Below, piece after piece: positions 2,486 through 48,477 of a DNA stretch of 64,000 nucleotides. Each line of letters begins with the position of its first letter. Positions within the stretch are counted from its first letter, which is position 1. The DNA lies in contig JAFTBN010000075.1 in the NCBI GenBank assembly GCA_017455185.1, positions 11,545 through 75,544 of the forward strand, written 5' to 3'. Under the pieces are notes generated by a model. The model was not told where the DNA came from. It saw nothing but the letters and a program-made list of their open reading frames with translations, and did not search any database. The position numbers were made by a program, and so were the translations under genes. This stretch comes from Clostridia bacterium. GTDB lineage: Bacteria > Bacillota > Clostridia > Oscillospirales > CAG-272.

Positions 2486-2509
2486 GATCAACACCTCCTT
2501 GACATGCTC

Positions 2510-33900: not shown

Positions 33901-36900
33901 CAGGATCTACCGGAGCCAAAGAATACCTTCCGTCTTCTGCAACAATAGGAGTCTTTGGCATTTCATCCCGAATATGATTGATTGCGTCCACCATCTCAGC
34001 AAGCATGCCGGTCGAAGAATCATCCGCCAGGTCGGCCGAAAGATTATCCAGCGTTTCCAACTCCTTGCGCATCATCCGCTCAATGTATGTCCCTGTGTCC
34101 ACCTGCTCGACTTGACCATCCTGCCCAATAACCGGAACCGTTTCTGGGATCACCAGCTGCACCTTTTTGTGCGGAGCATAGTGCCCTTCGCTGTCATAGA
34201 GCGAGAAATCGGCAAGCAGTTTGTAATAATTCGGATGGTTTGAGAAAGCCGCGTAAGCAACAGTCCAGCCTTTTTCCGCGAGCTCTGCCTTGTACATATC
34301 TGCGGCAAGCTTGGGGATGTCATCATACTTATAGGTCTTCCCGTTGAATTCGGTTGTTTCCTTTTTGTGTGTCTCCGTGCTTGCATTGTACCCGAATTTC
34401 TTTTCCGCGGAAGCAAGATACTTTCCGAAGGTAATGTGCTTTGTTTCTCCGCTTGCATCTTTCGCCTCGTTTAATCCACGGTAATTCTTCGCAAATCTCG
34501 CGCCCGGATACCGCTTCTCCGGATTCTCCGTATTATCATGGAATCCGATGATCAACTGCACCCGCGGATCATCCAGCAGTTTTTCGATATGCTTATCCGA
34601 GTACCCGATGCAGATGGTCCCCACGCTCTTGGAATACAGTTTGTCCATGGCAATCATGAACGCCTCGTCCGGGTTGATTCCTTCCACCGTATCAAACAGA
34701 AGTTCGCCGTTCTCCCCGAGCCCGGCATTTTCCAACGTCCTGGCATAATCAATCTCCCCGTCCGCCGTGCGGTATACATGCACCTTCGGGATCAGGGATG
34801 CATTGATTTTTGCACCGCTCAGACCGAGGATCTTCAGCTCCGCCGGAACCTTGGTGTAGGCGTGAATGTAGTAACCTTTAGCCGCCGCGTCCGCATACAT
34901 CTGGACCATATCCATAAGCAGATACATCTGCAGGTCACTGTTGGACTGGTTCCGGATACCTCCGGCATTCCGCACGGTTCCGGCTTTGAATCCTTTGGTC
35001 AGAATGTCTCCCAGATAGATTACAGGTCTTTGCTTGCTCTTGTACCCACTGACGCCTCCCTGACGATTGAACAGCGAGTACAGCATAGGATGTACACCGG
35101 CAACGTTCTGTGTCACATAGGACGAATACAGCATGTCGCTGTCAATGTATTTGCGCGATTTCGGCTCAAAGGCAAGCGCTTTCAAAAGGGCCAGATTGGT
35201 CGGAACGTTTCCTTTCAGGGATGCGGAAAAGGCCTGCGGCGTTGCCTCCTTGATCAAAGGACGCACCGTCTTGCTGCTCTTGTTGCTTTTCTCAATCTCC
35301 CGGTTTGTGATTTCCATCAGGGCTTCATAGAATGCATTTGACTGCTCTGCGCTCATCTCTACCGGTTTCAGATTGTATTTGTCGGTAGTGATATCCCGGC
35401 CGAATTTGCCGAACGTCATCTCTACGCCCTTCTCTGCCATCTTCCGGGAAATCTCGTCCAATGTGGAATTCCATCCGATTTTGGCGCCGTCTCCGTTCAG
35501 GAATTTTTTAATGATAGCTCCTTCCCGTTGCCGCGCCTGCTCTACATAGCAAATGGCGCAAGGAATTTCATACCCGTGCGTTTTCAGAATCCTGTACAGT
35601 GCTTCCTTTTCCTGCTTCCCGATGACGTCGGTCTTCATCTGCGTTTTGAGTTCTTTGCGTACGATTGCGTCAATGGCCTCAAACAGCGGAACACCCTTTT
35701 TGCACATGGTGGAAAGCTCGATGTTGTACTTGTATCCGCTTTGTTCCTTAAAGACCGAGAAGTTCCCGTCCCGGCCTTTTTTCTCGTTCCATTCCTTGAG
35801 GAATTTGGAATCCATAATCGCCGTTACATCCCGCCAGATCTTCGTAAACCGATCCAGCGCGGCATTAATGCCTTCCTTGCTCTGCATGGCGGACTTTTCG
35901 TCATAATTCTTGTCGATATCCTGACGATGCTTTTGGTCATATTGAAAATTGTTCCGCCCCGTTTCTCCGTACATCGCTTGTCTGCGATTCAATGCCATCT
36001 CAAAGGCATTGCTTCCCTGATTGTACGCAGACAGCCGCTGGAACGCCTGCTTGAATGCATACGCATAGGCTTCTGCAGCAGTTTTCGCCTGAGTAAAACC
36101 GAGCTTGTTGCCAAGTCTGCGCAAGAATGACAGGATCCTCGACTTCAGCGTCGCATCCTCCTGCAGGATTTCCGTCCATAGATCGTCATTCATCCCGAGT
36201 TCGCCGGCATACGCTGCCTGAATCTCGTCTTGAATGATGGCCTCGAGTTCATCGCCACTCTTTTTTGAGTCTTTATAATAGTCCGTATACAGCTCACGGA
36301 TTGCGTTTACGCGTTCTTCCCCGAGCGCCTTCTCCGCGAGCTCTACCATCATAGACTTGCCTTTGGAGGAAAGATGGTTGTATACCCAGTGCCCCGTTTC
36401 ATGCGCAAGCGTAGTGAGCAATCCTTCAGAAACACTTGCGGAAGGATTAACGTACACCGTATTGTGCATGTTGTACCGCCCGGTCGAAATGATTATGTGG
36501 CCGTCCTTGTCTCTTTTATTTGCCGTCAGAATCTTGCGACTGAATACAATGTTCAAACCGGTTTTAGCCGAAACCTTTGCAAAAATGGCAGTCTTGTCCG
36601 GGCTGACATTGTTTTCCAATGCCTGCATAACGGTCCTACGCACGCTGCGCTTGACCGATTCGCTGAGTTTGTCATAATTCGGAACGTATTCCCTGGCCTT
36701 CTGTTCTGCCTCTTCCCGAACCGTGTTCTGCCTCTGCTCTTCTGCGCGGAGGCTTTCGTTCGTCTTTTCCCGAAGCAGCTGATTGACTTCCTTCGACGTC
36801 ATGACGCGCGTAACGGACCCAGATTCCTTGTTCACGATGCGGTACTGGTTGCCCTGTTTTACGACAATGTACCCGTCCCCGATGTCATAAGCGCCGTCTT

Positions 36901-38488
36901 TGTTGGTTCCGAATGCCTTGGGTGCCGGCTTGACTTCGCCCTGCGCGGCCTGCTTTGCGCTCTGTGCGCTCTGCATAGCGGACATGACTTTGTCATGATT
37001 CCGGGCAAACGCTTCGCTGACTTCCACCGAGGATGCTTTCTTCCAGTTATCCACGCCGATCAGTCTGCCGATTTCCTCTTTTTGCTGTTCGGATGCGGTT
37101 TCAACAAACTGCTGCAGTTCGTCCGCCGTGATATCGCCGGGATGCTCAGCGGCAAACTGCACCCATGCGTCCGTCTGCATGGTGAGTTTCCCGGTAAAGG
37201 ACAAAATCGCCAGGCCCTGGAGGACGTGGTTATGCATGAGAGCGCTGCGGACCTGCTGGACGTACGGCTTGCCGGAGTCGGCCATAGCCGTTACGCCTTT
37301 GCGGATATCGTCTGCCGTAATCGTGATCTTGTTTCCCTTGTCATCCGTCAGGAAGGAGGAAATCTGCTGTGCAATCGCTTCCGGATTCTGCAGAATGTTG
37401 ATGGCCTCGCGCTGAAGCAGCGGATTGACCAGCGCTCCCACGTTAATCTGCATCAGATTTCCAAGAAGCATCTTCTGCCTGGGAGTCGTAACCACGTTCC
37501 CATTCTTCGCAATGGATTCCTTCAGCTGGTTATAAGTGTCCTGCAGAGTGTCAACGACTTCCTTGCTGACGCCGACCTGCTCTTGATTCTCCAGGATGCT
37601 CCGGGCGGTCTCAAGAATCGAGTTTACACTTCCGTTCTTGACGGCCTGGCTTCCAAAATACACGCTTCGCGCGGAAGAAATCTGGCTTCCTGTCGCGCCC
37701 ATCATGACACCGGAAAGACCGCCTACCAGCGCCTGATAGCCTACGTCCTTCCAGTCAACCTTCGCTTCGGGATCTACGCCTGTCAGCCTTCCCCACGCAG
37801 GTTCCAGAAGAGCGGATACGCCCTCTTCGAATGCTTCTCCCAAAAAGTCTCCGCCAAGGCGCTTAACCACTGCCCATGCGGTAGACTTGGAGATGGCCTT
37901 TGTTGCGTCATTTGCAAACTGCTTGGATACAGTGGACAAAACCCGACCGGAACCCCAGCCGGCAAAATCGCCCAGCATTTCCGTCCCGGCTTCCGTCAGA
38001 CCGGACAGATAACCATAGCCCATTTCTTTCCAGCCCAGTTCTCCGGTTTTCTTCACTGCCTCGCTTACGCCGGAGCCATATGCGGAGACCCCGAGTGCGG
38101 TCAGGGAGGCGGCCTGAATAGCCGCCTGTGACACTCCGCCTACCGCGTTTCCGATTCCGCCGGTCGCCCAAGCAACCACGAGAGAAGGCAAAGAGTTTCC
38201 AATGCCTGACGCCACATCTCCGGCAATCTTCCAGCCTTTGGAAGGGTTGAATTCCCTTGTGGCCTTCTCGTAATCGAACCAGTCGGTCGTGAATTTACGT
38301 TCTGCGTAATTCAGCGCATCCTCGTTATTGAAGATCTTTCCGGCCAGGAAAGCAGGAAGGCCGGTAACAGCATCGGCCGCTCCTTCTATGGCACGGATAA
38401 AGCCGTTACCCAGCTGCTGGCCGAGATAATCGAGCCCGTACCCTACGTTATGTTCCCCTTCTTCAAGAGTGATATCTGTAAATTTCAT
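27953..38488 (-). CDS. Giant multidomain (polyvalent-type) virion protein, 3,511 aa
   Basis: Single uninterrupted ORF. Gly/Ala-rich hydrophobic N-terminus. HExxH metallopeptidase motif LAHETGHWVYNH (codons at 36389-36403). Class I SAM-methyltransferase motif I ILDASSGLGYG (33685-33717) with DVIISNAVLNVL and GGRIFVNV. Remaining regions are unassigned. It occupies the MuF/minor-head-protein slot after the portal. Confidence 0.85.
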   Translation of the reverse strand: MKFTDITLEEGEHNVGYGLDYLGQQLGNGFIRAIEGAADAVTGLPAFLAGKIFNNEDALNYAERKFTTDWFDYEKATREFNPSKGWKIAGDVASGIGNSLPSLVVAWATGGIGNAVGGVSQAAIQAASLTALGVSAYGSGVSEAVKKTGELGWKEMGYGYLSGLTEAGTEMLGDFAGWGSGRVLSTVSKQFANDATKAISKSTAWAVVKRLGGDFLGEAFEEGVSALLEPAWGRLTGVDPEAKVDWKDVGYQALVGGLSGVMMGATGSQISSARSVYFGSQAVKNGSVNSILETARSILENQEQVGVSKEVVDTLQDTYNQLKESIAKNGNVVTTPRQKMLLGNLMQINVGALVNPLLQREAINILQNPEAIAQQISSFLTDDKGNKITITADDIRKGVTAMADSGKPYVQQVRSALMHNHVLQGLAILSFTGKLTMQTDAWVQFAAEHPGDITADELQQFVETASEQQKEEIGRLIGVDNWKKASSVEVSEAFARNHDKVMSAMQSAQSAKQAAQGEVKPAPKAFGTNKDGAYDIGDGYIVVKQGNQYRIVNKESGSVTRVMTSKEVNQLLREKTNESLRAEEQRQNTVREEAEQKAREYVPNYDKLSESVKRSVRRTVMQALENNVSPDKTAIFAKVSAKTGLNIVFSRKILTANKRDKDGHIIISTGRYNMHNTVYVNPSASVSEGLLTTLAHETGHWVYNHLSSKGKSMMVELAEKALGEERVNAIRELYTDYYKDSKKSGDELEAIIQDEIQAAYAGELGMNDDLWTEILQEDATLKSRILSFLRRLGNKLGFTQAKTAAEAYAYAFKQAFQRLSAYNQGSNAFEMALNRRQAMYGETGRNNFQYDQKHRQDIDKNYDEKSAMQSKEGINAALDRFTKIWRDVTAIMDSKFLKEWNEKKGRDGNFSVFKEQSGYKYNIELSTMCKKGVPLFEAIDAIVRKELKTQMKTDVIGKQEKEALYRILKTHGYEIPCAICYVEQARQREGAIIKKFLNGDGAKIGWNSTLDEISRKMAEKGVEMTFGKFGRDITTDKYNLKPVEMSAEQSNAFYEALMEITNREIEKSNKSSKTVRPLIKEATPQAFSASLKGNVPTNLALLKALAFEPKSRKYIDSDMLYSSYVTQNVAGVHPMLYSLFNRQGGVSGYKSKQRPVIYLGDILTKGFKAGTVRNAGGIRNQSNSDLQMYLLMDMVQMYADAAAKGYYIHAYTKVPAELKILGLSGAKINASLIPKVHVYRTADGEIDYARTLENAGLGENGELLFDTVEGINPDEAFMIAMDKLYSKSVGTICIGYSDKHIEKLLDDPRVQLIIGFHDNTENPEKRYPGARFAKNYRGLNEAKDASGETKHITFGKYLASAEKKFGYNASTETHKKETTEFNGKTYKYDDIPKLAADMYKAELAEKGWTVAYAAFSNHPNYYKLLADFSLYDSEGHYAPHKKVQLVIPETVPVIGQDGQVEQVDTGTYIERMMRKELETLDNLSADLADDSSTGMLAEMVDAINHIRDEMPKTPIVAEDGRYSLAPVDPVVPTGGWKRSQTFEEVKEQHPDLWDVSADESSEKNPTSVKVTVASYDKIYSFLKDEGFEGKILDASSGLGYGTELGKDKYGFDVEDVEPYPGERHEPDYRDYTKISGQYDVIISNAVLNVLPQDLRDSLVARMGELLAPGGRIFVNVRGEDVMNASSKVILDKDNLEVFISGSGSYQKGFKKSELVAYLKDALGEGYDVEAVTFFGKTSAVVTKSANDDIRYSLPDYIDDLAVKKFGTTDDIKKAAYIIKDGKMLDFSSVMTKGMNPNRPDMWHDSIILAVKDKPSFTERSDATHAYINQGNIRVNFNGSKNMPSIIDMPSFEAVDSLTDDQMETIRDALSQISGKLTIAFDDDSRTNYRYDGNFDSVLDDIRNYYRSNGKQLSDVAMFHEEGRYSLIGYDADDIEVYETSQTILNLPQKQRIAKYLDYLKNDYVGRTAKFVRNGHTYYATMDKTSIRKPVFGDDNSSKAGKKALVKVGADGNIFELIENSKYQSSSPNHKKHTPADYFDYFVKQVWIDNKLFDVLANVEKKYNDKDGYVYTFSLQENKNSAQHNTHPTVVKIAVPRTNSGNSIAQNDDLSTPIEEKNENSSSEEGRNSLSDGYEFKRYTKKEAEEIVNRIMENIEYTESERSYFEDEWDSNIFKPKLIGKSRKQAINQIFEMLNSAPAGERFNPALRIADYLIDNVIMHEIVVGTDASAVAAQFIDAMNQYRHGIHITDQIKSEAKYVFDDKANEIWMQWAAPKGTRGMDPDVIAMEMRSQGIYLGDVDVDAPAQQIFHQLLQHYDHCKSMLDEKAAKIKLREFGSEQALKDYRQGIAKDLLRAYDEFGTISKEGKAVERVRGQYERKLGEQRKGYEKRIDALKGVFEEQKQKLLDKLKNSYKKNQVENRVVDLARKLKDGAIRKYVSSTVLSNPILEKWEKELGKLVLRGNLRKANSRNILLTYEKFYNAKNQPLMDWLAETSEDGKGELDPNVLGAFEVIKNAKKETASGVPLPLSYEELKAAEVILGSAEALFRNYDAAFLEGKRYTTRQLAEDEMKFLMSKEFKKIKHFVKLTQTIQKWFNYTVEPRVVIRMLERYDPKGFLTRMYNEILQGETAAEYQRVQFMLPFEEFFKKNKGYQKRLASATIDFHGETLTLNQAIALYETTKRAQAQKGLACSGFSYEDKDGNTHHVKGTMETNLTDEDYEDNAVWFRKTIESSLTKEDKEFIKLVENFFNVESKNAKTEADLNFLGYTNVLDEFYFPIVRDRTTIARSTMDVRSFLKDVAALNNFSFNKDTKPKAATELHIGNVYDMVQTHAKQMSVYANLAQPMQTFDRVYNKNIGEKTDVRTVRKFVDENIWKGASAYLQKLFSDIQGVVMPNEDFNLFGALRGGYAKYQLGANLKVILSQTASFPTAAIVLSPKAMLRGFFRKIDFKAMDKYCPYAFTRNHDQVVVKAEGVIDKVGKIGDATTKPIQWTDRLTIGVLWNASQAQVQEEKGYVFGTEENMKEAGKLLEQVIRQTQPNYSNTERSAMMRSTHEAAKVFSMFTSAPLKQYSRLVEAAGELSYAVQTKNAKAKADAAKKLGRAISAILIANAMYCMIGQFISWLFKKKRREDEEGNEISFAEDYLTDIAVTTIGMMPGMNQIASYFTKGYGVSGFVYDTVNDFLMDSKNIVSLIGKAASGQPVERYEFGSVLRRSVYTAGELTGIPVRNIMNTVTGMMRRFAPEAGYAVDSFFYATDYRTDLSEYMNHGNTDMAEYLLKLYTKDNTGTMSKEARDVLLNLYTQGYDVLPKAVGNTLSYTYTDANGETKTESYKLTANQKKQFKYLYSKANPVIESMLNDRVFKKLSEEDQAKAIKSVNTAYFMMAKDEVTKTKTTNNTLLTFFRKDIGKFATVLAGLNEIGTDKDKKGNAISGTKKKNVYKYLTTSGLSKQEAVYVMAVKGYTLSGLPVSEESATTMLLKYIMSLPVTQAEKAAIAERCGFTVKGNRILRKKS

Positions 38489-38502
38489 ATGCACCTCTTT
38501 TT

Positions 38503-38546: not shown

Positions 38547-40800
38547 TCAGTATCCCGCCGCGTTTTTCGACCAGCATCCACATGTCACCGTCACAATAAT
38601 ACATGTACCCATCTCTTTCTACCAGGAGATTCTCCCTGAGCCCCAAAATATCCGTGAGCATTTCTTTCATGTTTTTGTTCAAAGTCTTCAGGTTATAATC
38701 AATACCGTCAACCTTCAGCCCATAATTGGATCCCGTATTGTTATACCCAGTCACCAGCTCAATGCTATGCCGTCTCGGGCTCGTAACCTTATACACAGAC
38801 TTCATGTCTGCTATCGCCTGATGGTATTGGGTTGCTGACAGTTTTCCTTCCGTCAGCATATCTTTCAGGGTCTGCTGAATATCCTTGTAATTCGTGCTTG
38901 TGTATTGCGTTGCATACACGTGGGCCACTTTCCCGTTCACTGCACGGTATGTTTCCAGATTGATGGAACCGTTGTTGTAATCGGAGTCAAGGGTTGCAAT
39001 GATATCAAGCAGCGGCTGGTTGATATCTCCGTACTGATCGATGCTGGCAAGGACTGTATCGTAATTGCTGACATACGTATTCATAGCTTCCTGGTACTGC
39101 TTGTTATACTGCTTGAGAGAATTGCCCTGTTCCTGGGTAATCTGTCCGCCTGTCACAAGCGCGTCAATCTCAGAATCTGTCAACATTTCACCGTCTTGGT
39201 ATCCGGCTACCACATCCTTGTAATATTCGTTCTGCGCGTTCAGTGTCTCCTGATCGTATTTCAGCTTTTGCGCCTCAAGGTCAGCTGCATACTTGGCCTG
39301 CGCTTCTTCTTGCGCCTGCTGATATGCGGCCATACCCTGCTTGTAAGAGATGCCGGCGGATGCAATGCCCTGTTCCTTCGCAAGCTCTGCGTTCGCGTTT
39401 GCCGCGCTCTTCTGCAGGTCTGCCTGAAGCATGCTGTCCCGGTAGGTCATATCCGCGTTCTGTTCAGCCGCAAAGCGGTTCGCTCCTGCCGAGTACATTT
39501 CGCCCCGGCTGGCTGCATATGCCGCCTGATCCGCATAGTCGGAATACCCGGACATAGCCAGCCCATTCCGGCCCAGTGATTCGCCACGGCTTCCATACCC
39601 TGCACGATTGAGCGCATACGCATTCTGCGCGTCGTTGACAGCTCGCTCGTATTCGGATGCGGCCGCCTGCCTGGATGCGTCAGCCTGTGCCTGTGCGGCA
39701 TCTTTTGCAATGCCGTACTGCTCCTGCGCTGCCTTCTGGGAGATTTCATACTCACGGTTTGCGTACTCTTCCTGCTGGCGCCGGATATCCGCCAGCCAGT
39801 CCTCATACGTCATAACCGGAGGCGTGCCATCTGTGGTTCCTTCCGTGGTTCCGGTTCCGGTATCTGTACCTGTGCCTGTATCGCCCTGGTCGCTTCCGCC
39901 TGTTTCGCCCGTGCCCATGGGGGGCTGGTCATCCGGCGTTACCATCACGTAATCCCCCTCACCGTCCGGTACGAATTCTTTGCCGGAATCGCCCGTTGAC
40001 ACCTTTACCACCGGCTCGTTCTGTCGGCTGTAAACTGTGGGCGCTTTGAGTTGCGTGCCCATAGTGATCTTGTCCTTCGGCGGTTCCATCACGTAATCAC
40101 CGTTACCGTCCGGAATGAATTCTTTGCTGGTGTCGCCTCCGGTCTGGTCGCTTCCGCCGGTCTCGCCCGTGCCAATGGGGGGCTTCTTCAGGTTGCGGAC
40201 ATAGTCGCCTTCCCCGTCCGGATCAAACGCTCTTTCCTGTACTTCCTTTACCACCGGCGCGCCCTGCCGGCTGTAAACCGTGGGCGTTTTGGGTTGCGTG
40301 CCCAAAGTGATCTGCGTATAACCGCCTGTGTTGCTTTCGCCTCCGGTCTGGTCGCTTCCGCCGGTCTCGCCTTCGGTCTGGCCTTGATAGGTTGGCGGTA
40401 AAATACGCGTCGGATCTGCCGCTTCCGTTTCGGTCAGCCCCTGTTCCAAGGCCTGTCCTGCATAGCTGGTCGTTTGTTCAGGAGGAGAATCTGTCACAGG
40501 CGGAACATCCGTCAGAGGAGGATAGCCAGGAGGTGGTTCAATTTCGGTCTGCTCGGGCCCGTAGACCTCTCCGTCAAGATATTTGGATGCCTCTGCGTAA
40601 TTCCAGTCCGGCGTAGGCGTCCAGGTGGATTTGTTCGAAGGCGGCGCGTTCTTCTTTCTCTCTTCTTCCTCTTTCCTCTTTCTCTCTTGTTCCTCTTTTT
40701 TCTTTCTCTCTTCTTCTGCAATGATGTCCAGATACTCCTCCGCGTCGCTCAGAATCTGGCTCTCTTTGGTCTTCTTGGTATCTAAAGGTTTCTTAGGCAT
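38542..40800 (-). CDS. Repeat-rich virion-associated protein (752 aa)
   Basis: Lys/Glu-rich N-terminus. Three ~65-aa tandem repeats (GTGETGGSDQTGG...PDGEGDYV...PTVYSRQ). Q/A-rich coiled-coil middle. It overlaps the portal stop by 8 nt. Confidence 0.7.
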   Translation of the reverse strand: MPKKPLDTKKTKESQILSDAEEYLDIIAEEERKKKEEQERKRKEEEERKKNAPPSNKSTWTPTPDWNYAEASKYLDGEVYGPEQTEIEPPPGYPPLTDVPPVTDSPPEQTTSYAGQALEQGLTETEAADPTRILPPTYQGQTEGETGGSDQTGGESNTGGYTQITLGTQPKTPTVYSRQGAPVVKEVQERAFDPDGEGDYVRNLKKPPIGTGETGGSDQTGGDTSKEFIPDGNGDYVMEPPKDKITMGTQLKAPTVYSRQNEPVVKVSTGDSGKEFVPDGEGDYVMVTPDDQPPMGTGETGGSDQGDTGTGTDTGTGTTEGTTDGTPPVMTYEDWLADIRRQQEEYANREYEISQKAAQEQYGIAKDAAQAQADASRQAAASEYERAVNDAQNAYALNRAGYGSRGESLGRNGLAMSGYSDYADQAAYAASRGEMYSAGANRFAAEQNADMTYRDSMLQADLQKSAANANAELAKEQGIASAGISYKQGMAAYQQAQEEAQAKYAADLEAQKLKYDQETLNAQNEYYKDVVAGYQDGEMLTDSEIDALVTGGQITQEQGNSLKQYNKQYQEAMNTYVSNYDTVLASIDQYGDINQPLLDIIATLDSDYNNGSINLETYRAVNGKVAHVYATQYTSTNYKDIQQTLKDMLTEGKLSATQYHQAIADMKSVYKVTSPRRHSIELVTGYNNTGSNYGLKVDGIDYNLKTLNKNMKEMLTDILGLRENLLVERDGYMYYCDGDMWMLVEKRGGILT

Positions 40801-42745
40801 TTGCGTTTCCTCCTCTCAAGGTATCCTGCACGTACTGCTCGTAAGCCTTGCGGCTGTTGACCTCGTCCTGCAGGCCTGCGATCTGATTCTGCAGCTGCGC
40901 CATCTCGTTCAGGCGTGCGATCTCGGTCCGGATGCGCTCCACGTTGTCGCGTGCGTACGGATAGTGCGCTTTTTCCATATTTTGCCAGTATATGAGCTTT
41001 GTCTGCGGCAGAGCCGGGTCTCCGTAAGCACCAGCCTGGAAGTTTTCCTTGTTCTGCTGCCAGAGCCATGCACGGTCCAGTTCTTCCTCGGGGTTGCTGG
41101 AGCACGAGAACGTGTAGTCGTCCGCATAGTAATACTCGCCGTTTTCGTCTCGCTCGATGAAATCGTAGCGGTTGAAGATGCAGTTTTGCAGATTGCCTTC
41201 CGCGTCCCGGTAGGCCGCCGGTCTCGGTTCGTCAGCGTAAGCGAGATAATACTGAAAGATGATGCGGTCTATCTCCGAATACGCGAAATTCTTCATGACG
41301 CGCTTGGACTGCAAACGCCCGGAAGACTGCTGAACCTGGACCTGCTTGGCAACACCGGACTGCGCCGTGCTGTCCGAGAGGCCTCTGTAGCTGTCCGTGA
41401 TGCCGAGGATCCGCTTTGCGTGCTCATACACGCGCTCGGACTGCTCCACGTCCTGCCCGATCTGGGCCTGCAGGTCCAGCTTGGCAAACAGGTTGAAATT
41501 GTTTGGCCGTGCCCGGAAGACCCTCTCATACAGGCTGTCATCCAGCTGGTCGACGAAATCGTCCGGCACGATTGGGAACACGCCCGATTTGAGAATCTTT
41601 TCCAGGATCCTGGACTCGATCTTGTTGATCTCCTGCTGCTGGTCCCGGATGTATTCGCAGTCACTCTGCCCCAGCAAGGACTCTTCCTGGCTGGTGTTCT
41701 TGCGGATGACGACCGGGAACGCGGTAATCTGATACCACGGAATGCGCGTCGGCTCGGTCTTGGGAACCTCGACGTCTACCATCATAGGCAGGGCTACGCC
41801 GTTGATCAGGTCAATGGCGGTAGAACCGTCCGGATTGGTCACCGGCGCCTGCTGGGTCTCCATCACCACCTGCCCGTTCTCAATCACCGGAGACAGGCGA
41901 GGCAGCACGGACCCGTCCGCCCGGACGATATCGTGGTCCAGCTCCTCGAATTCTTCATCTTGCACCTCGAAATAAGGCATTTCGCACGTGCACAGGCGCT
42001 CCGGCCTTCCACATTTGACGCACACCTTCTTTTTGCGGTTGTAATAGTCTTCTATCCACTGGATTTCCTGATCGCCGGACCAGATGTACTGGCAGACCTT
42101 GTCCTTGTCGTCCTTGTAATAGCACACGTACAGGGTCGCGGTCTTGTCGTCCGTGCTGTCTTCGCTCTCCAGATCGTCCAGGATGGACACGTCCACGTCA
42201 TACTTGCGCAGGATGTCTTCCTTCGTGGTCTCGAAGAGGATAAACAGGTACTCCATGTCTTCGATGGCGTAGATGTTCGGCTGGCCAACGAACCGATGCG
42301 GCGGCAGGCAGCTGACGCGCACGTCTCCGCTGGTGTTGTGCGTCGTGATGGTCTCATCCCATTCCACAAGCCAAACGGACCCTCCGTAGATCGGGTTGTA
42401 CCGCTCGTCTATATCGTTGAGCGATTCAAACGGCAACCGGTCCCGGTTGGTGTTGAGCATGGTCTCAATGGCCTTGGCGTTGCGCAGATTGCGTTCTGAC
42501 ACCATCTTGGGCTCTACCTTAGGCGACGGGATATACGTTGAGATCTGCGCCTCCACGAACTCGTACGTGATGTTGCGGACCACTTTTGCATCCACAGACG
42601 ACCCGTCTATCTGCTTGGAGCCCTTGTACTGCTCCATCCACTTCTGCAGGGCCAGCCGTGAATTTTCAGACTGCCCCAATGCTTCCTGGTACAGGTCCTG
42701 AAAAAACCGTACCCGTTCTTCCTTGCCGTTTCCTTCTATCTTCAT
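40793..42745 (-). CDS. Portal protein
   Basis: 650 aa, directly downstream of TerL (ATGA overlap). The N-terminal region is typical of portals (QKWMEQYKG...RNITYEFVEAQISTYIP). A CxxC...CxC insert is present. Confidence 0.8.
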   Translation of the reverse strand: MKIEGNGKEERVRFFQDLYQEALGQSENSRLALQKWMEQYKGSKQIDGSSVDAKVVRNITYEFVEAQISTYIPSPKVEPKMVSERNLRNAKAIETMLNTNRDRLPFESLNDIDERYNPIYGGSVWLVEWDETITTHNTSGDVRVSCLPPHRFVGQPNIYAIEDMEYLFILFETTKEDILRKYDVDVSILDDLESEDSTDDKTATLYVCYYKDDKDKVCQYIWSGDQEIQWIEDYYNRKKKVCVKCGRPERLCTCEMPYFEVQDEEFEELDHDIVRADGSVLPRLSPVIENGQVVMETQQAPVTNPDGSTAIDLINGVALPMMVDVEVPKTEPTRIPWYQITAFPVVIRKNTSQEESLLGQSDCEYIRDQQQEINKIESRILEKILKSGVFPIVPDDFVDQLDDSLYERVFRARPNNFNLFAKLDLQAQIGQDVEQSERVYEHAKRILGITDSYRGLSDSTAQSGVAKQVQVQQSSGRLQSKRVMKNFAYSEIDRIIFQYYLAYADEPRPAAYRDAEGNLQNCIFNRYDFIERDENGEYYYADDYTFSCSSNPEEELDRAWLWQQNKENFQAGAYGDPALPQTKLIYWQNMEKAHYPYARDNVERIRTEIARLNEMAQLQNQIAGLQDEVNSRKAYEQYVQDTLRGGNANA

Positions 42746-43011
42746 GCCGGCAATCCTCCCATTATCTTGATAATTGCCTCTCGCTCTGTGTTACTCCGCG
42801 CGTTGCGGTAGTCCTCCAGGCGATCCGGGCTGTAATGTACATATTTAACGGTCTGCTCTTTGGCAGGCGTTATCCAGTAAATGCAGAAATACCGTAAACT
42901 ATCACAATTATGGACAATCACTCCACTATTTACAGAAAAACAGTGCGTGCTATCCACATATAAGTCATATACTTTCTGCTTGTTCCCTCTCCTTATATGG
43001 GTGATATGCAC
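42742..43011 (-). CDS. terL: TerL fragment 4: split-intein C-half (35 aa) fused to the TerL C-terminal 54 aa
   Basis: GTG at 43011 lies 8 nt after AAGGAGG. The piece ends ...VYDLYVDSTHCFSVNSGVIVHN, then Cys+1 (42906-42904), then DSLRYFCIYW (nuclease Asp motif). It ends in an ATGA overlap with the portal start. Confidence 0.8.
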   Translation of the reverse strand: MHITHIRRGNKQKVYDLYVDSTHCFSVNSGVIVHNCDSLRYFCIYWITPAKEQTVKYVHYSPDRLEDYRNARSNTEREAIIKIMGGLPA

Positions 43012-43546
43012 AAGACCTACCTCCTTTTTGTCTGCTTCTGAATGCGCCTTTACAATTATTGCTACAGAATTTGCTCCTTAAAGCACACATTTTTGGCGTT
43101 TCGTACTCTCTTCCACACATAAGACACACCTTTTTGACTTTTGTCTCTATCGACGGAAGAATTGACGAATTCCAGTGTTCTTTATGCCACACTCTGCCTT
43201 TTGTGCCTTTATGCCATTCAATTGCTTTTGGTCTTGCTTTCTCATTCATGTTTTTTCTTGCTCTTTCTTTTGCGACTTGCGATGAAGAATGAAGTGATAA
43301 ATGACCATAACCGTTTATCATTTGCAGATTGTCTATGCTATTGTTTGCTTTATTTCCATCCTTGTGATGAATGTGATATCCTTTCGGCACGACACCATTG
43401 TGCTTTTCCCACACATAAATATGCAATCGCTTGATTTTCTTTTTCCCAACACTTCCTGCATAGTAACCTTGCTTAGTTGGATAAAAACGAAACCCATCCA
43501 CTATGATTGCCTTTGAGTCTTTACTTGGTTTCCTTCCGCCTGGCAT
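42965..43546 (-). CDS. Free-standing HNH homing endonuclease between the split-intein halves
   Basis: ATG at 43546 lies 7 nt after GAGGAGG. HNH motif HIHHKDGNKANNSIDNLQMI plus a C-terminal CxxC..CxxxC cluster. It is in a different frame from both TerL halves and overlaps each by ~46 nt. Confidence 0.85.
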   Translation of the reverse strand: MPGGRKPSKDSKAIIVDGFRFYPTKQGYYAGSVGKKKIKRLHIYVWEKHNGVVPKGYHIHHKDGNKANNSIDNLQMINGYGHLSLHSSSQVAKERARKNMNEKARPKAIEWHKGTKGRVWHKEHWNSSILPSIETKVKKVCLMCGREYETPKMCALRSKFCSNNCKGAFRSRQKGGRSCAYHPYKEREQAESI

Positions 43547-44661
43547 ATATCGTCCTCCTCTGTAAGTATTCCTGCGGGTATCCATCCCCTGTTGCTTGTT
43601 AGTACAAGATGATCTGGCGTGCATTCCAACTCGGTTCCATCATCGAATGTAAGGATAATCGTCTCCTTTTCTCCCATACAAACGCAAGCCTGGTAATCTT
43701 GCTCTTCACCAAGCAAAGATATCAATTTGCCACTTGTGCCTTCCAAGTCTTCTATCCTTGCCTGCGTGCCATCGGCCATGTTGACGAGCGTATTACCCGC
43801 GAGACACGCATGCGTTATCTCATGCGGATCCAGCGAGCAGTCGTTCGGCCGTTTCGGGTCCCGTAGGATCTCGATCATGCATTTGATAAGCTCTTTGCAG
43901 GTGTTGAATATCCGCAGCTTCGGGATCCCGTGCTCATCCGGCCGGAGCATCTCCTTGATGGCAAGCCATCCGGCCTCCCGGTCGTTGCTCGCTTTGGTCA
44001 GCTCCAGGCCTGCCTCATAAAAAAGCTCGGCCTTGCTCTTGCCGGTCTCCTGGCTTCTGCTCCACAGATCCGGCGGAGCGAGCACAGCGTATATATCATC
44101 GCCGGCAGACCACTCGTTGATTTTCTCGGCCGCTTTGCTGATAATTAGGTTACTTTCGCAATACTCCTTGTAGCAGTACACGTACCCTTCCCGGTCTATC
44201 GCGTACCAGTAAGCAGCGAGCCGGTCGAGGCCGTAGTCAATCGAGATATACCGCCTCCAGGACGAATCAAGCGGGCAAGGCTGGATGACATGCACCCGGC
44301 GGTCAAAATCGTCAAACATCTGACCCTCGGCCACATCCCACGAGCCATAGCGCCATCTCTTGCGCATGTCCTCCGGCAATGAATCCAGCTGCGCCACGTA
44401 GTCCGGGTTTGCCTCCATCAGAACCTGGTTATCCGTAACCAAAGACTGGATAAACAGGTAATCGTCCGGGTTCTCTCCGTCTGTGTAGTCCCGAGAGACA
44501 AACAGGCGCTTGACCCAAGCGAAGCCCACGCCGTCCGGGTTGCATGTCAGATAGATCCGTTTCGGGCGATTGTTCGCGCCACGAAGGCAGGCCTTGAGGA
44601 CGTTGAAAACGCTCTCCATAAATTGCGTCGCTTCTTCCAAAAAAATTACATCGTACTCTTG
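43501..44661 (-). CDS. terL: TerL exon 3: Walker B and nuclease domain (285 aa) fused to the split-intein N-half (101 aa)
   Basis: QEYDVIFLEEATQF (Walker B), ISIDYG, DPHEITHA, then CLAGNTLVNMADG...TPDHLVL (Hint blocks A/B) from codon 43806. The frame stops at 43503-43501. Confidence 0.85.
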   Translation of the reverse strand, partial: QEYDVIFLEEATQFMESVFNVLKACLRGANNRPKRIYLTCNPDGVGFAWVKRLFVSRDYTDGENPDDYLFIQSLVTDNQVLMEANPDYVAQLDSLPEDMRKRWRYGSWDVAEGQMFDDFDRRVHVIQPCPLDSSWRRYISIDYGLDRLAAYWYAIDREGYVYCYKEYCESNLIISKAAEKINEWSAGDDIYAVLAPPDLWSRSQETGKSKAELFYEAGLELTKASNDREAGWLAIKEMLRPDEHGIPKLRIFNTCKELIKCMIEILRDPKRPNDCSLDPHEITHACLAGNTLVNMADGTQARIEDLEGTSGKLISLLGEEQDYQACVCMGEKETIILTFDDGTELECTPDHLVLTSNRGWIPAGILTEEDDICQAEGNQVKTQRQS

Positions 44662-45428
44662 CAATCGTGTTATCCGGCAGGCTTTTTATCTTGCCGTTCT
44701 TGCGATTTCTCGCAAGTTCAGCATATCTTTTCATCCCTTACGGGAGCCGTGGCCTCGTGGACGGGTTATATCTTTTCACCGTCTATGCGTTGCGGCTGGC
44801 AACAGTAACTGCTGCCTTCACCTCTGATTGCCTTGCTTTTTGCATATAAGAGACGTTTTCGCGTAACGGGATCCACCTGCAATTGTCCGGCGAATAGTCC
44901 AGATCCGGGTTAATCCTGTCAATTGACATGCAATCACCTTTTGTTTGCCCGTTTTGGGGCTCTACATATCCGTGACTGTACGACCATTCCCGGAAGGCCT
45001 CGTAATCCTGCCATTCCTGGCAAAGCTTGACGCCTTTTCCGCCGTAATACTTGTATGTATGCACATTTGGGTTGTTGCATCTCTGCTTTATTCCAATCCA
45101 AATGTTGTAAAGCCTTTCCTTGTCGGAATGCCCGTGCGTCAGATGGCTGTTTACGCCTGCTTCACGCCGAAAGCATCCGCAAGACTTGGTCACACCCTTT
45201 CTCAGGTTTCCGGCTTCTGCGACCGTGACACAGCCGCAATCGCATGCACATCTGTAATACAAGTGTGATTTTCGCGTGTGATCATACGCAATAACAGTCA
45301 GTCTTCCGTATTTTTTCCCGATTTCGTCTCTCATATGTACCCTCCTTTGGGTATTTTGCAAAAAGTTTAGGTTTCCAGGTTTTTTCCACGGTTTTCGATG
45401 GCCGTTACCGGCCAAAGGGGCAAGATTC
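44662..45428 (-). mobile_element. Group I intron 2 in terL (767 nt) carrying a homing-endonuclease-like ORF
   Basis: Exon 2 ends ..CAGGGU. The intron ends ..ACGAUUG (terminal G). It has a GCCCC guide-like element and shares conserved blocks and a 3' hairpin with intron 1. Confidence 0.75.
44783..45334 (-). CDS. Intron-encoded homing-endonuclease-like protein
   Basis: ATG at 45334 follows AAGGAGGG. KKYGRLTVIAY...CACDCG...SCGC, WQDYEAFREW and SIDRINPDLDYSPDNCRWI are typical of phage intron/free-standing endonuclease-like proteins. Confidence 0.65.
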   Translation of the reverse strand: MRDEIGKKYGRLTVIAYDHTRKSHLYYRCACDCGCVTVAEAGNLRKGVTKSCGCFRREAGVNSHLTHGHSDKERLYNIWIGIKQRCNNPNVHTYKYYGGKGVKLCQEWQDYEAFREWSYSHGYVEPQNGQTKGDCMSIDRINPDLDYSPDNCRWIPLRENVSYMQKARQSEVKAAVTVASRNA

Positions 45429-45677
45429 ACCCTGGTACTGTAGCGCGTCCGCGTCTGATTGGAAGTACGAGCACTTTAGCGTTGACCCATTCACGAACTG
45501 AAACGTGCGGTCCATCTCTTTCCATCGCGCGATCTCCGGCGGAATTTCGGCCCGGAGCGGCATGATATGGTTGTCTTTTAAATCGACGAAGGTCTTCCGA
45601 ATGATCAGCATCTTGATTCCGGGCCACTTGATGGCCAGCCTTTTTGCCTTTTCCCGGACTGCCCAGCTCTTTCCACC
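45429..45677 (-). CDS. terL: TerL exon 2 (83 aa)
   Basis: GGKSWAVREKAKRLAIKWPGIKMLIIRKT...SDADALQYQG. It supplies the GKS of Walker A and ends at the conserved YQG. Confidence 0.8.
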
Positions 45678-45975
45678 CATTATTGTTACCGCAGAGGCTT
45701 TTTATCCTCTGCTTCACGGCCTTTCGCGCCGTGGTCAGCGTACATTTTCCGCATTCGCGGTCGGGCACTCTTGGCAGGGTTATATTTATTCACCTGCTAC
45801 GCGTTACGGAGATCAGCAGCCTTTCGCAATCTGCTGATTTTCCTCGGTGTTGCCATGATATCGATTCAGATTCGCTCTCGTCGAATTCGTCTTTTACTTC
45901 CATCTCCATGCCTCCTTGCACGTTTCGATATTTTAGGTTTTCACCGATTTTGCCCGATTAAGAGGCAGTGTGTTT
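45678..45975 (-). mobile_element. Group I intron 1 in terL (298 nt, ORF-less), inserted inside the Walker A loop
   Basis: Exon 1 ends AGAGGU. The intron begins AAACACACUGCCUCU, where GCCUCU can pair with AGAGGU (P1 with a G.U pair at the splice site). The intron ends AAUAAUG. It is homologous to intron 2. Confidence 0.75.
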
Positions 45976-46071
45976 ACCTCTCGCGCCGCCAAAGGCCACA
46001 TATTTAGCGGTCGCCGTCATAAACTCCCTTTGTTTGGGCTGTGGCCGGCCCAGCTTAAACGTAACCGTCAT
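45976..46071 (-). CDS. terL: TerL exon 1 (32 aa)
   Basis: ATG at 46071 overlaps the terS stop (ATGA) and follows GAGGAG. MTVTFKLGRPQPKQREFMTATAKYVAFGGARG supplies the first half of Walker A. Confidence 0.7.
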
Positions 46072-46580
46072 ACTGACTCCTCGTCCACCTCGGCCTGATT
46101 CTCGGTCTCGATCCGGACAGTCAGCACGTTGTCATCCGGCGCCTTTTCCCGGAGCCCGTACTTGGCCGAAAGCAGAAACTTCCCAAAATTGGCGTTGTGG
46201 ACGCCGTCGTTCGAAGCGTCAATCAGGTTCTGCTGATCATACCGGTCTACTATGTCCCAGACAGCCTTCCATTCCGGATAGCGCAGCTTTCCGTCCGGAT
46301 CCACGGCACAGGCCCAGTATTCCAAAGTGCTGATCACCACGCCAATTCTCCGGGCAAAGCCCACCTTGGATGGCAGAGGCCGGGTCATCCGGTACTTCTT
46401 CCCGGACGCGTCCTCATATTCGTCATACATGGGCTCGTTGTAGTAATCGAGGAGCATTCTGGCATACTCGGGCTGATACTTGCTCTCGTGCAAATACACG
46501 CTGTATTTGTGGCCATCTGCGAACGTTCCGTTCGGATTTTTCCCGTCCCATTTCTCTTTTGGGCTGTATTTTTTTGCCAT
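46068..46580 (-). CDS. terS: Terminase small subunit
   Basis: 170 aa, first gene of the late arm, translationally coupled to terL. The motif FGKFLLSAKYGLREK is typical of TerS C-terminal parts. The call rests on position plus this pattern. Confidence 0.65.
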   Translation of the reverse strand: MAKKYSPKEKWDGKNPNGTFADGHKYSVYLHESKYQPEYARMLLDYYNEPMYDEYEDASGKKYRMTRPLPSKVGFARRIGVVISTLEYWACAVDPDGKLRYPEWKAVWDIVDRYDQQNLIDASNDGVHNANFGKFLLSAKYGLREKAPDDNVLTVRIETENQAEVDEESV

Positions 46581-46602
46581 TATTTTTCACCTCCTTGCCT
46601 CA

Positions 46603-46641
46603 ATTATACAGAATAAAAAAGCGGTTTTGGTATCCCATTTC
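46603..46641 (-). promoter_or_regulatory. Late promoter copy 4 (packaging unit)
   Basis: The same 21-nt box (46641-46621), 12 nt, then TATAAT (46608-46603), immediately upstream of the terS SD. Confidence 0.7.
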
Positions 46642-46674
46642 ATTTTTGCCCTCGGCTTAGAACCCAATAAAAAA

Positions 46675-46694
46675 AGGCAGAAAAAATTCTGCCT
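46675..46694 (-). terminator. Rho-independent terminator just inside attR, insulating the late promoter from host read-through
   Basis: Minus strand reads AGGCAGAA-UUUU-UUCUGCCU followed by UUUUUUUAUU. Confidence 0.6.
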
Positions 46695-46697
46695 AAA

Positions 46698-46719
46698 TCT
46701 GTACCCACTCTGTACCCAC
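46698..46719 (+). repeat. attR core candidate (TCTGTACCCACTCTGTACCCAC)
   Basis: Direct repeat of 672-693 with one mismatch. Confidence 0.65.
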
Positions 46720-46896
46720 ATATACAGTATATGTGTAACATGTTATATACTTACTGTAACAATCAACCTTCCAGTTCTGAACGTGCGGTCATGTTCCAAA
46801 ACCCAAAAAACTTTTGCCAATACGCCCTTTTGGCACTGAAATGTGATACAATGTTTCTGCCGCGGAATTGTCTTTCTGCGGCAGAAAGGAAGCGCC

Positions 46897-48477
46897 ATGA
46901 TGAAAAAACTGTTGGCTATTCTTATGGTTCTGATGCTTTTTACTCCGGTTCTGCTTGCCGCTTGCGGCCAAAATGCCGAACCCGCAGAGTCAGACACGAA
47001 AAAACCGGCCGCAGACGAAACAGCCGCCGGCGAAAGCGACACCGATGCCGGGCCGAACGCGGAAACTGAACCCGGGCATGAAACCGAAAACACGACGGAC
47101 AATTACAAAGATATGCAGCTGCTTCTGGTCACCGACGTTCATCTGTGTCATCTGAACTGGTACGGGATGACGTCCGAGGACCGCATGGCCAAAATGGTCC
47201 GGGACCTCAACGATTACTATCGCAAAAGCCCCTACGAGGCGATTCTCTTTTTGGGGGATTATTCGCTGGATTTCTGGGAAACCGGTATTTTGGGGTCCTG
47301 GAGACACCAGAATCTGTCCAATACGGACATTCTCCTGCACGATTATCTGCCCGATCTTGATTGCCGGAACCGGTATATCATCCCGGGGAATCACGAACAG
47401 TACGGATACGATTTATGGAAGGAAATCACCGGATTCGAGCGGCAATACTACATCAAACTCGGCGGGTATCTGATCTTCATGCTGGATAATTTCCACGGAG
47501 ACCTGGATCCCGACACGGACAATCACGGAGTCTACACCCCGACGGATCTGGAATTTATCCGGGACGTGATGGACGAAAACCCCGACATGCCGGTTCTCCT
47601 TTGCGCCCACTATTTCGACCTGGCGCAGGAAGCTGCGGCAGGAGACGGATTCCGCCGGCTGGTCTGCGACGACCGGGTGGTTGCGCTCTTCTGCGGACAC
47701 GATCACGTGCGTACCGTCCAGAACCTGGGAGCAGACTATGCAAACAAGATCATCTTCCACTGCGGGCAGTTCTCCTATACGAAAGCGACCATCACGCAGT
47801 GTCCCTGGGGATGGAGGAGCATGGATCTGAGCCGGGACGGCATTACCGTGACCTATTTCGCTCCTGAAAGCACCCTGACCGACGGAGGAAAAACCATCCA
47901 CATAGACGAAGGTTATCTGGAAGAAATCTTTGTTCCCAACCTTCTGACCAACCCCCAACCTCAATCCGGAAAAGAAACCGACGCCCGTCCGGAGACGCCC
48001 GACCTTTCCGGGTTGGAGAACCTGTGCCGAAACGCGACCATCGTGTCCGCCTCCCCCGGAAACAAGGAAAAGAACGGGCCTGCCTCCCTGATTGACGGCG
48101 ATACGGCCCTGACCAAATGGTGCGTCACCTCGGACCCGAACCTTCCGGCCGATCTTAGCGGAAAGGCTCTTTACTATGCCACGCTGGATCTGGGAGAGAC
48201 CCGCCCCCTGAAAGCCTACCGGCTCTTCAATGCCTCGGGAAGTTCCTACGCCGGAGATTCAGGCAACGCCGGCATGGACACAAAAGCATGGAAACTGCAA
48301 AGTTCAGCCGACGGCGTCACCTGGACCGACCTGGACAGCGTCAGCCAGAACACCGCCCCGCTCTACGCAAGCGCCCTTGAAGGGCAGGCCCGATACGTCC
48401 GGCTTCTGATTCTCCCCGGCGGGGCCAATCAGAACGATGACGTCGTCCGCATTTACGAGCTGGAGATATACGGATAA
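46897..48477 (+). CDS. Lipoprotein: calcineurin-like metallophosphoesterase with a C-terminal F5/8 type C (discoidin) domain
   Basis: Lipobox LLAAC. Motifs DVHLCH, GDYSLD, GNHE and GHDH. The C-terminus reads LIDGDTALTKWC...ARYVRLLI...IYELEIYG. Confidence 0.8.
   Translation: MMKKLLAILMVLMLFTPVLLAACGQNAEPAESDTKKPAADETAAGESDTDAGPNAETEPGHETENTTDNYKDMQLLLVTDVHLCHLNWYGMTSEDRMAKMVRDLNDYYRKSPYEAILFLGDYSLDFWETGILGSWRHQNLSNTDILLHDYLPDLDCRNRYIIPGNHEQYGYDLWKEITGFERQYYIKLGGYLIFMLDNFHGDLDPDTDNHGVYTPTDLEFIRDVMDENPDMPVLLCAHYFDLAQEAAAGDGFRRLVCDDRVVALFCGHDHVRTVQNLGADYANKIIFHCGQFSYTKATITQCPWGWRSMDLSRDGITVTYFAPESTLTDGGKTIHIDEGYLEEIFVPNLLTNPQPQSGKETDARPETPDLSGLENLCRNATIVSASPGNKEKNGPASLIDGDTALTKWCVTSDPNLPADLSGKALYYATLDLGETRPLKAYRLFNASGSSYAGDSGNAGMDTKAWKLQSSADGVTWTDLDSVSQNTAPLYASALEGQARYVRLLILPGGANQNDDVVRIYELEIYG

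Follow-up and report, generated by a model that had tools for sequence, protein, structure and literature searches.

How does a temperate phage make an intact large terminase (TerL) from a gene whose reading frame is closed inside an intein-like sequence and re-opens only beyond an endonuclease gene? This question is raised by terL in a 64,000-nucleotide (nt) stretch of a Clostridia bacterium genome (contig JAFTBN010000075.1), hereafter the window, where the gene belongs to a temperate phage of roughly 46 kb. All positions are given in window numbering, and terL, the intein halves and the HNH gene all lie on the minus strand. A first, sequence-only reading had described the locus as a "fractured gene", a gene interrupted by the two halves of a split intein and, between them, an HNH endonuclease gene that is free-standing. 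Our analysis supports this description in every element that could be tested. We consider it very likely that the locus is a genuine fractured gene, a phage terL holding a 900-bp mobile cassette in which a class-1 intein is split by an HNH_3 gene.

Within the N-half open reading frame (ORF; 44664-43501), ...RDPKRPNDCSLDPHEITHA in the TerL frame gives way at 43806 to CLAGNTLVNMADG...ECTPDHLVLTSNRGWIPAGILTEEDDICQAEGNQVKTQRQS, and the frame closes at TAG 43503-43501. The N-terminal intein half (IntN) opens at 43806 with the residues CLAGNT, and its Cys1 codon is 43806-43804. The TTG at 44664, taken by the ORF finder as the start of this half, is no real start; the exon begins at 44661, at the 3' splice site of an upstream intron (intron 2), where the sequence-only reading had already placed it. 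Counting the TAG, seven in-frame stops stand in the TerL frame before the first possible start, GTG 43011-43009. This GTG opens MHITHIRRGNKQKVYDLYVDSTHCFSVNSGVIVHN, the C-terminal intein half (IntC) of 35 residues, followed by the 54 residues CDSLRYF..., of which Cys+1 is encoded by 42906-42904. The TGA of this piece (42744-42742) overlaps the portal ATG (42745) as ATGA. The HNH ORF (ATG 43546 to 42965) runs in a frame other than that of TerL, so that no single frame passes through the endonuclease. Given the seven stops and the HNH gene in another frame, the locus is not a contiguous bifunctional intein. The HNH ORF shares 46 nt with the N-half and 47 nt with the C-half; its ATG is placed 43 nt inside the IntN ORF and its frame is open for 26 codons upstream of that ATG. 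The sequence-only reading, which gave overlaps of about 46 nt, a separate frame and an own GAGGAGG Shine-Dalgarno sequence for a 193-residue HNH ORF, proved exact to the base in the coordinates of all three pieces. In-silico joining of exons and exteins yielded a TerL of 454 residues, colinear with an uninterrupted homolog (P0014) and identical to it at 445 of 454 positions, and the exon-joined protein matches Terminase_3 and Terminase_6N.

The identity of the two halves was addressed with profile searches and structure prediction. Fused, IntN and IntC matched the Pfam profile Intein_splicing (PF14890) over its full length with 41.3 bits (cut-off 35.8, E 1.8e-10), and IntC aligned to profile positions 123-155. 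TIGR01445 was matched by IntN with 25.4-29.6 (cut-off 24.5) and TIGR01443 by IntC with 16.8-17.6 (cut-off 15.6). In a PDB sequence search the alignment to RecA mini-inteins ran end to end, and that to the DnaX and NrdJ-1 inteins covered most of the fused halves. An AlphaFold model of IntN plus IntC, built from a 38-sequence alignment without fused inteins from other loci, reached a predicted local distance difference test score (pLDDT) of 93.6 and a predicted template-modelling score (pTM) of 0.87, with only the split loop (residues 91-100) of lower confidence; modelled from its single sequence, the fused intein gave a pLDDT of 37 and no usable model. The top 50 Foldseek matches in the PDB were nearly all inteins, with a few bacterial intein-like (BIL) and Hedgehog Hint domains (template-modelling score 0.74-0.89, E down to 4e-10), and included the split inteins NpuDnaE, NrdJ-1 and gp41-1. 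Thus, the intein assignment held up in the two checks that the sequence-only reading had named for it, with the Pfam and TIGRFAM cut-offs passed and a confident HINT model, and we are confident that the joined halves are predicted to make a complete HINT fold. IntN has 101 residues and IntC 35, and the break falls in the canonical loop between the N- and C-terminal splicing blocks, in line with the expectation of halves of about 100 and 35 residues split where endonucleases insert.

The residues that splicing chemistry calls for are in place. Cys1 and the Thr and His of the block B motif T-x-x-H (TPDH) do not vary among five fractured TerL loci or across an alignment of 38-42 sequences. IntC ends in ...VIVHN followed by Cys+1; the Asn and Cys+1 are invariant in the five loci, and the residue before the Asn is His in four of them and Lys in the fifth. 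IntN carries 19 acidic (D+E) and 6 basic (K+R) residues, a net charge of -13; IntC has 4 K+R and 2 D+E, with its basic residues at the N-terminus. An exhaustive phmmer search with IntN returned 633 Hint relatives, many of which stop shortly past the LTEEDDI motif. Among the best 150 of these, 48 end 2-20 residues after the motif ...LT.NRGW...L.EEDD, which places the window intein among a large set of natural split inteins of the canonical, NrdJ-1-like kind. The contiguous mini-intein P0031 shares 49% identity with IntN and precedes the same CDALRY motif. A further phmmer relative, P0025 (147 residues), begins with an IntC-like end (...SNIISHN), after which a Cys and a complete IntN (CLAGNTLV...LTEEDDIV) follow directly, without an extein in between; it may come from the middle of a doubly split gene or represent two neighbouring inteins. 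A word-indexed search of proteins with the fused halves retrieved only the cluster of the C-half itself, the N-half being hidden under an intein-less cluster representative.

The ORF between the halves matched PF13392 (HNH_3) with 53 bits (cut-off 24.8, E 2.6e-14) over residues 40-76 (HIHHKDGNKANNSIDNL) and, in PHROG, phrog_15471 (E 2.8e-27) and HNH families, which bears out the free-standing HNH gene proposed at this place. Scans of viral contigs and genome contigs with the HNH protein found no close relative. Residues of about 140-175 (42965-43130) show a CxxC...C...CxxxC pattern (VCLMCGREYETPKMCALRSKFCSNNCK), and the Cys-rich C-terminal third of the protein is probably a zinc-ribbon DNA-binding module; one HNH homolog carries the JGI label YacG/DUF329-like. 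The HNH gene has a guanine-plus-cytosine (GC) content of 39% and the whole cassette one of 41.6%, compared to 54-56% in the TerL exons. The initiation regions of HNH and IntC are less structured than shuffled sequences (z +2.0 and +2.4, respectively), and a promoter and terminator scan inside the cassette gave nothing above chance. We also observed that the Shine-Dalgarno sequence of the HNH gene is made of the codons of the conserved acidic intein motif (T)EED, and that it lies together with the ATG within the (T)EEDDIC codons (43544-43560). Purine-rich counterparts stand at the equivalent position in the related loci L011 (3129-3156) and L014 (1542-1569). The Cys after DDI is invariant in the five-locus alignment, and in the overlapping genes it is apparently kept because its codon gives the TG of the HNH ATG.

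Comparison with relatives allowed us to delimit the insertion. The relatives include a TerL of 454 residues without introns and without intein (P0014, locus L005), one with intron 2 and no intein (P0015, L006) and one with the intein cassette and no introns (P0013, L003). In the intein-less L005 and L006 the gap corresponds to exactly 43806-42907 (900 nt), leaving the sequence THA|PDSLRYF, and the site in L005 reads ...CACGAGATAACGCACGCG|CCAGATAGCCTGCGG... around the junction. Occupied alleles carry Cys for Pro at the junction and, within 10-14 nt of the insertion points, a few synonymous changes of their own. When the window is set against L003, the cassette is identical at 891 of 900 positions (99.0%), with a synonymous divergence (dS) of 0.04-0.06, whereas the flanking TerL exons are 87-90.5% identical with a dS of 0.53-0.59, and identity switches within 10-14 nt of the junctions. 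This contrast, together with the foreign GC content, is the signature expected if the whole unit of IntN, HNH and IntC recently moved laterally. The insertion site lies within the invariant TerL nuclease motif H-x-x-D-x-L-R-Y (H-x-x-D-x-x-R; alignment A5). The Asp at position +2 had been described as a conserved nuclease residue. It is invariant in A5 and probably a metal ligand, as in RNase H-like terminase nucleases. Queried with the spliced TerL sequence or with a profile of the nuclease domain, the PDB yielded only the phage D6E terminase, with a weak match at the junction motif (E 0.5). A megablast of the locus against GenBank phages gave no match.

The same organization was recovered from diverged phages. 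The exact 89-, 193- and 387-residue products are recorded from several assemblies, and the locus is 100% identical in the independent assemblies L008, L009 and L010 and in an NCBI metagenome-assembled genome (MAG). L003 and L004 have the same stops and starts. L011-13 (HNH 69% identical) and L014 (HNH 56% identical) share the three-ORF layout: IntN stops a few codons past DDIC, the HNH ATG lies within the ...GAT ATA TGC... (D-I-C) codons, and a Shine-Dalgarno sequence with a GTG or TTG opens IntC at the same position. The HNH/IntC overlap is 47 nt in L011 and L014 as well. For IntN, HNH and IntC in these diverged lineages dS is saturated and the non-synonymous divergence (dN) is 0.15-0.34; for the C-extein dN/dS is 0.07-0.08 against L003 and L011. 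These values support the view that the three-ORF layout is kept under purifying selection in diverged phages. Because layout, catalytic residues and selection are conserved there, sequencing error and pseudogene decay are excluded, and with the identical locus in independent assemblies this answers the concern about frameshift errors that the sequence-only reading had voiced itself. The HNH_3 relatives fall into 85 clusters. All six HNH_3 relatives inspected (L011-13, L014, L018, L022, L015-17 and L021; 38-69% identical) are flanked by a TerL N-half that ends in IntN and by a small ORF of IntC and C-extein. Of the four beyond L011-13 and L014, two (L018 and L022) have HNH on the same strand as the halves and two (L015-17 and L021) have it antisense, and in L018 the intein halves are in different frames. 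The antisense HNH_3 gene (3001-3669 in L015-L017, 2501-3160 in L021) shares 32-50 nt with the 3' end of the N-half, and this antisense form is absent from the 2009 description of fractured genes.

These observations suggest the following route to a complete terminase. The cassette sits in the H-x-x-D-x-L-R-Y nuclease motif, with the intein broken at its canonical endonuclease-insertion loop by the HNH_3 gene, and three proteins would be made from three starts, probably on one late transcript. Splicing of two group I introns from the RNA would permit synthesis of N-extein-IntN. The HNH endonuclease would be translated independently from a ribosome-binding site provided by the IntN codons of the acidic motif EEDD, and IntC-C-extein independently from GTG 43011. 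The acidic IntN (net -13) could then pair with IntC through its basic N-terminus to form the HINT fold, and trans-splicing would proceed via Cys1, the TPDH block, the terminal His-Asn and Cys+1. The predicted product is a 454-residue TerL which at the junction differs from intein-less alleles only by the change from Pro to Cys; ligation would yield the junction peptide ...DPHEITHACDSLRYF.... The HNH protein may cut intein-less terL of co-infecting relatives, with repair copying in the whole cassette (homing), and such cutting of empty alleles would drive the lateral transfer described above. The features of the locus are listed in Table 1.

Table 1. Coordinates of terL, its cassette and its introns in the window.
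Feature	Position	Strand	Remarks
TerL exon 1	45976..46071	-	ATG 46071, 32 codons, ...FGGARG; colinear with uninterrupted alleles P0013, P0014
Intron 1	45678..45975	-	298 nt, no ORF; precisely absent in L003, L004, L005
TerL exon 2	45429..45677	-	GGKSWAV...LQYQG; Walker A
Intron 2	44662..45428	-	767 nt; precisely absent in L003, L005, present in L006
Intron-2 ORF	44783..45334	-	183 residues; phrog_374 "HNH endonuclease", E 2.7e-50
TerL exon 3 (rest of N-extein)	43807..44661	-	285 residues, Walker B DVIFLEEA to ...DPHEITHA
Split-intein N-half (IntN)	43501..43806	-	101 residues + TAG; Cys1, block B TPDH
GAGGAGG Shine-Dalgarno of HNH gene	43554..43560	-	7 nt before ATG 43546; written in IntN codons
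Free-standing HNH_3 endonuclease gene	42965..43546	-	193 residues, C-terminal Cys-rich (zinc-ribbon-like) tail
AAGGAGG Shine-Dalgarno of C-half	43020..43026	-	8 nt before GTG 43011
Split-intein C-half (IntC)	42907..43011	-	35 residues, blocks F and G, ...VIVHN
C-extein	42742..42906	-	54 residues = Cys+1 + last 53 residues of TerL; colinear with P0014 residues 401-454

Two introns upstream of the cassette were part of the original description, and their precise absence in relatives agrees with it. The exon before each of them closes with U and each intron with G, the ends of group I introns. In an Rfam search of small pieces intron 1 matched Intron_gpI with 25.5 bits (E 1.2e-4), under the gathering score; intron 2 had no Rfam match, and Rfam at an E-value threshold over 41000-48000 returned nothing. 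Introns 1 and 2 are, on this basis, probable group I introns. Comparison with the relatives gives good support to the proposal that terL would require RNA splicing twice and protein splicing once. The intron-2 ORF, which had no Pfam or NCBIfam match, is a second endonuclease gene in terL and unrelated to the cassette HNH. The introns come and go independently of the intein, with L003 carrying the intein only, L006 intron 2 only and L005 none of them. By eye, the two introns have short 3' motifs in common (GTGAAxAxATATAACCC; GATAAAAAGCCT...GGxAACA), which suggests that they are related to each other. A group I intron as the source of the HNH segment itself is improbable: the coding strand of 42880-43650 gave no Rfam match, though Rfam also missed intron 2, and the segment is fully coding.

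Several points weigh against the reading of terL as a trans-spliced fractured gene. Taken singly, the two halves score under the Pfam gathering score (18.2 and 20.3 bits), and IntC, although charged in the direction expected opposite an acidic IntN, is overall just weakly basic (net +2). Trans-splicing, the ratio in which the halves are made and the endonuclease activity are what we infer from sequence, and the earlier wording that the prophage "must" ligate its terminase by trans-splicing was overstated. Finally, IntN and IntC are in the same frame in the window, L003, L011 and L014, so that frame alone permits an in-frame removal at the RNA level.

This last point leads to one of the two alternatives that survive best, each of them improbable: the HNH segment could be removed or skipped, by an intron in the intein gene, a bypass or paired frameshifts, and the resulting mini-intein would splice in cis. 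Loss of 43503-43012 would indeed stay in frame, and bypassing was raised as an alternative for other fractured genes (Dassa et al., 2009; PMC2677866). The shared frame has another explanation, because an HNH ORF across the gap forces indels to multiples of three. No coding-strand group I match was found in 42880-43650 in a small search space with E up to 10, a negative that is weak since the same gene holds two introns that Rfam barely detects and Rfam also missed intron 2. The segment is wholly taken up by a conserved ORF, so that no non-coding stretch is left to hold a ribozyme core; the start codon of IntC and its Shine-Dalgarno sequence keep their positions in three lineages, and no X_XXY_YYZ slippery site was seen by eye in the 46-nt overlap. 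Known bypasses span tens of nucleotides, compared to about 490 here (PMC2677866). In addition, the halves are in different frames in L018, and HNH is antisense in L015 and L021.

An equally improbable alternative concerns the HNH protein, which could be a packaging cofactor of the terminase and not a homing endonuclease. HNH genes beside terminase genes can aid cos cleavage, as for HK97 gp74 (Kala et al., 2014, as cited in PMC10055350), and site-specific cleavage by the window HNH is a prediction. Yet near-identical TerS-TerL-portal modules in L005 and L006 do without an HNH gene. The gene is gained or lost only together with the intein halves, is compositionally foreign and occurs on either strand.

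Slightly less probable still is decay, in which endonuclease insertion killed the intein and terL is a pseudogene of a defective prophage, with no ligation. Three selfish insertions in one gene could point to relaxed selection, and expression and induction are here a matter of prediction. Against this, IntN, IntC, HNH and the C-extein bear the marks of purifying selection reported above, the catalytic residues are invariant in the five loci, and the same layout recurs on contigs with different backbones. Integrase, repressor, TerS, portal, head and other long ORFs are intact in the prophage. At the same low level we place the possibility that the intein halves keep the two TerL pieces joined non-covalently, or that the N-half works alone, in either case without peptide ligation. 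Genes fractured by endonucleases without inteins can make functional two-piece enzymes, for example Aeh1 NrdA, known here through its citation in PMC2677866. Invariance of Cys1, T-x-x-H, the terminal Asn and Cys+1 across diverged loci argues for ligation, as does Cys in intein-plus versus Pro in intein-less alleles, a pattern expected only if splicing chemistry is in use; moreover, the break interrupts the nuclease domain within its invariant H-x-x-D motif. An assembly artefact that split an ordinary contiguous HNH-containing intein is most improbable of all: two compensating frameshifts would join all pieces, given an HNH frame that stays open for 26 codons before its ATG and reaches into both halves, but such a pair of errors would have to recur in L008, L009, L010 and the NCBI MAG, in L003/L004 and in lineages at 56-69% HNH identity, with an own Shine-Dalgarno sequence and start codon for each ORF.

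The prophage seems to span about 0.8-46.7 kb. The integrase (795-1835) lies at one end beside an S24/HTH repressor (1835-2494; together 795-2494, minus strand), and TerS (46580-46068) at the other, where a metallophosphatase/F5_F8-type-C gene (46843-48477, plus strand) adjoins it. In L003 and L005 the integrase stands directly upstream of TerS, as expected of a circular or excised form. The structural region contains an ORF of 3513 residues (27953-38494, minus strand) downstream of the portal gene and a 752-residue ORF, and relatives have products of 2389 to >3700 residues at its place. An ORF of 624 residues on the plus strand (40625-42499), antisense to the portal gene and with a low-complexity translation rich in Leu, Ser and Val, is almost certainly a shadow ORF and no gene.

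If terL is a fractured gene as we propose, the locus offers an empty site, a recent cassette transfer and diverged relatives with a selected three-ORF layout, a full comparative set that is rare for natural fractured genes. It makes a strong case that an essential phage enzyme would routinely be assembled by protein trans-splicing, and it shows three independent selfish elements layered on one packaging gene. Fractured genes would thereby extend to HNH endonucleases, predicted in 2009 and then unseen, to a canonical terminase split and to gut-type Clostridia temperate phages. Such loci would also explain calls of "truncated" or "missing" TerL in phage annotation, and the family could supply new orthogonal split inteins working at 37 °C. 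We further entertain, tentatively and with more doubt than belief, a widespread and so far undescribed lineage, an HNH_3 subfamily specialized on split inteins at the TerL nuclease active-site motif, in sense or antisense. Should it exist, the fractured state would be a stable selected end-state and not a transient intermediate. Such a state might act as a weapon against competing phages that lack the intein, or as a checkpoint, with nuclease-competent terminase formed only once both halves are made. The empty allele, P0031 and the sense and antisense forms would then be a natural series for testing the Dassa model of split-intein origin, and the set of mesophilic, NrdJ-1-like split inteins might be of use in protein engineering.

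The arrangement itself is already known. Fractured genes were defined by Dassa, London, Stoddard, Schueler-Furman and Pietrokovski (2009; PMC2677866) from 26 Global Ocean Sampling (GOS) loci, including gp41-1, NrdJ-1, IMPDH-1, NrdA-2 and others, with one gp17-like terminase of atypical split among them. The endonucleases there were GIY-YIG or Vsr-like only, usually after a 27-51 nt spacer with a hairpin; the endonuclease types were regarded as modular, and HNH and LAGLIDADG were predicted to be capable of the same. Like these loci, the window has N-extein-IntN, a free-standing endonuclease and IntC-C-extein in this order on one strand, in a phage gene for a conserved enzyme. The break is in the canonical endonuclease-insertion region, the half sizes of 101 and 35 residues fall within their 88-105 (IntN) and 33-54 (IntC), and IntN is related in sequence (TPDH...LT.NRGW...L.EEDD). 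The 3' end of the endonuclease gene overlaps the start of IntC, by 47 nt (43011-42965) compared to 6-69 bp in 15 of their loci (PMC2677866). Unlike them, it has an HNH_3 endonuclease, and in place of the spacer with hairpin a 46-nt overlap, a ribosome-binding site in intein codons and an unstructured initiation region. Its setting is a gut-type Clostridia temperate phage with two group I introns, whereas theirs is marine cyanophage-like DNA.

Other systems share single features with the locus. In Aeh1 nrdA, split by the HNH gene mobE, and Aeromonas phage 25 gp43, both as cited in PMC2677866, a free-standing homing endonuclease also splits an essential phage gene; they have no intein halves and their products stay two chains, while Hint halves flank the break here. 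Actinophage surveys describe contiguous mini-inteins and HNH-containing inteins in phage TerL (bioRxiv 10.1101/2025.01.02.630785), and among the non-canonical intein endonucleases of the 2025 survey there is no free-standing HNH gene inside a split intein. These inteins, like P0031, occupy a conserved TerL site, but they are single ORFs even with an out-of-frame or antisense endonuclease, whereas here the frame is shut by seven stops and re-initiated. Searches of the open-access literature turned up no fractured terminase that is both canonically split and of the HNH type. Closest in function are GOS-TerL and AceL-TerL, naturally split inteins of the phage large terminase for which trans-splicing was shown experimentally (as summarized in PMC11766414), so that a terminase can be assembled in this way. 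Their split is atypical, giving 25-37 residues to IntN and 104-122 to IntC, compared to the canonical 101 and 35 here. What the window adds to a known arrangement is therefore a variant with an HNH_3 endonuclease, overlapping frames with the ribosome-binding site in intein codons, and two co-resident introns.

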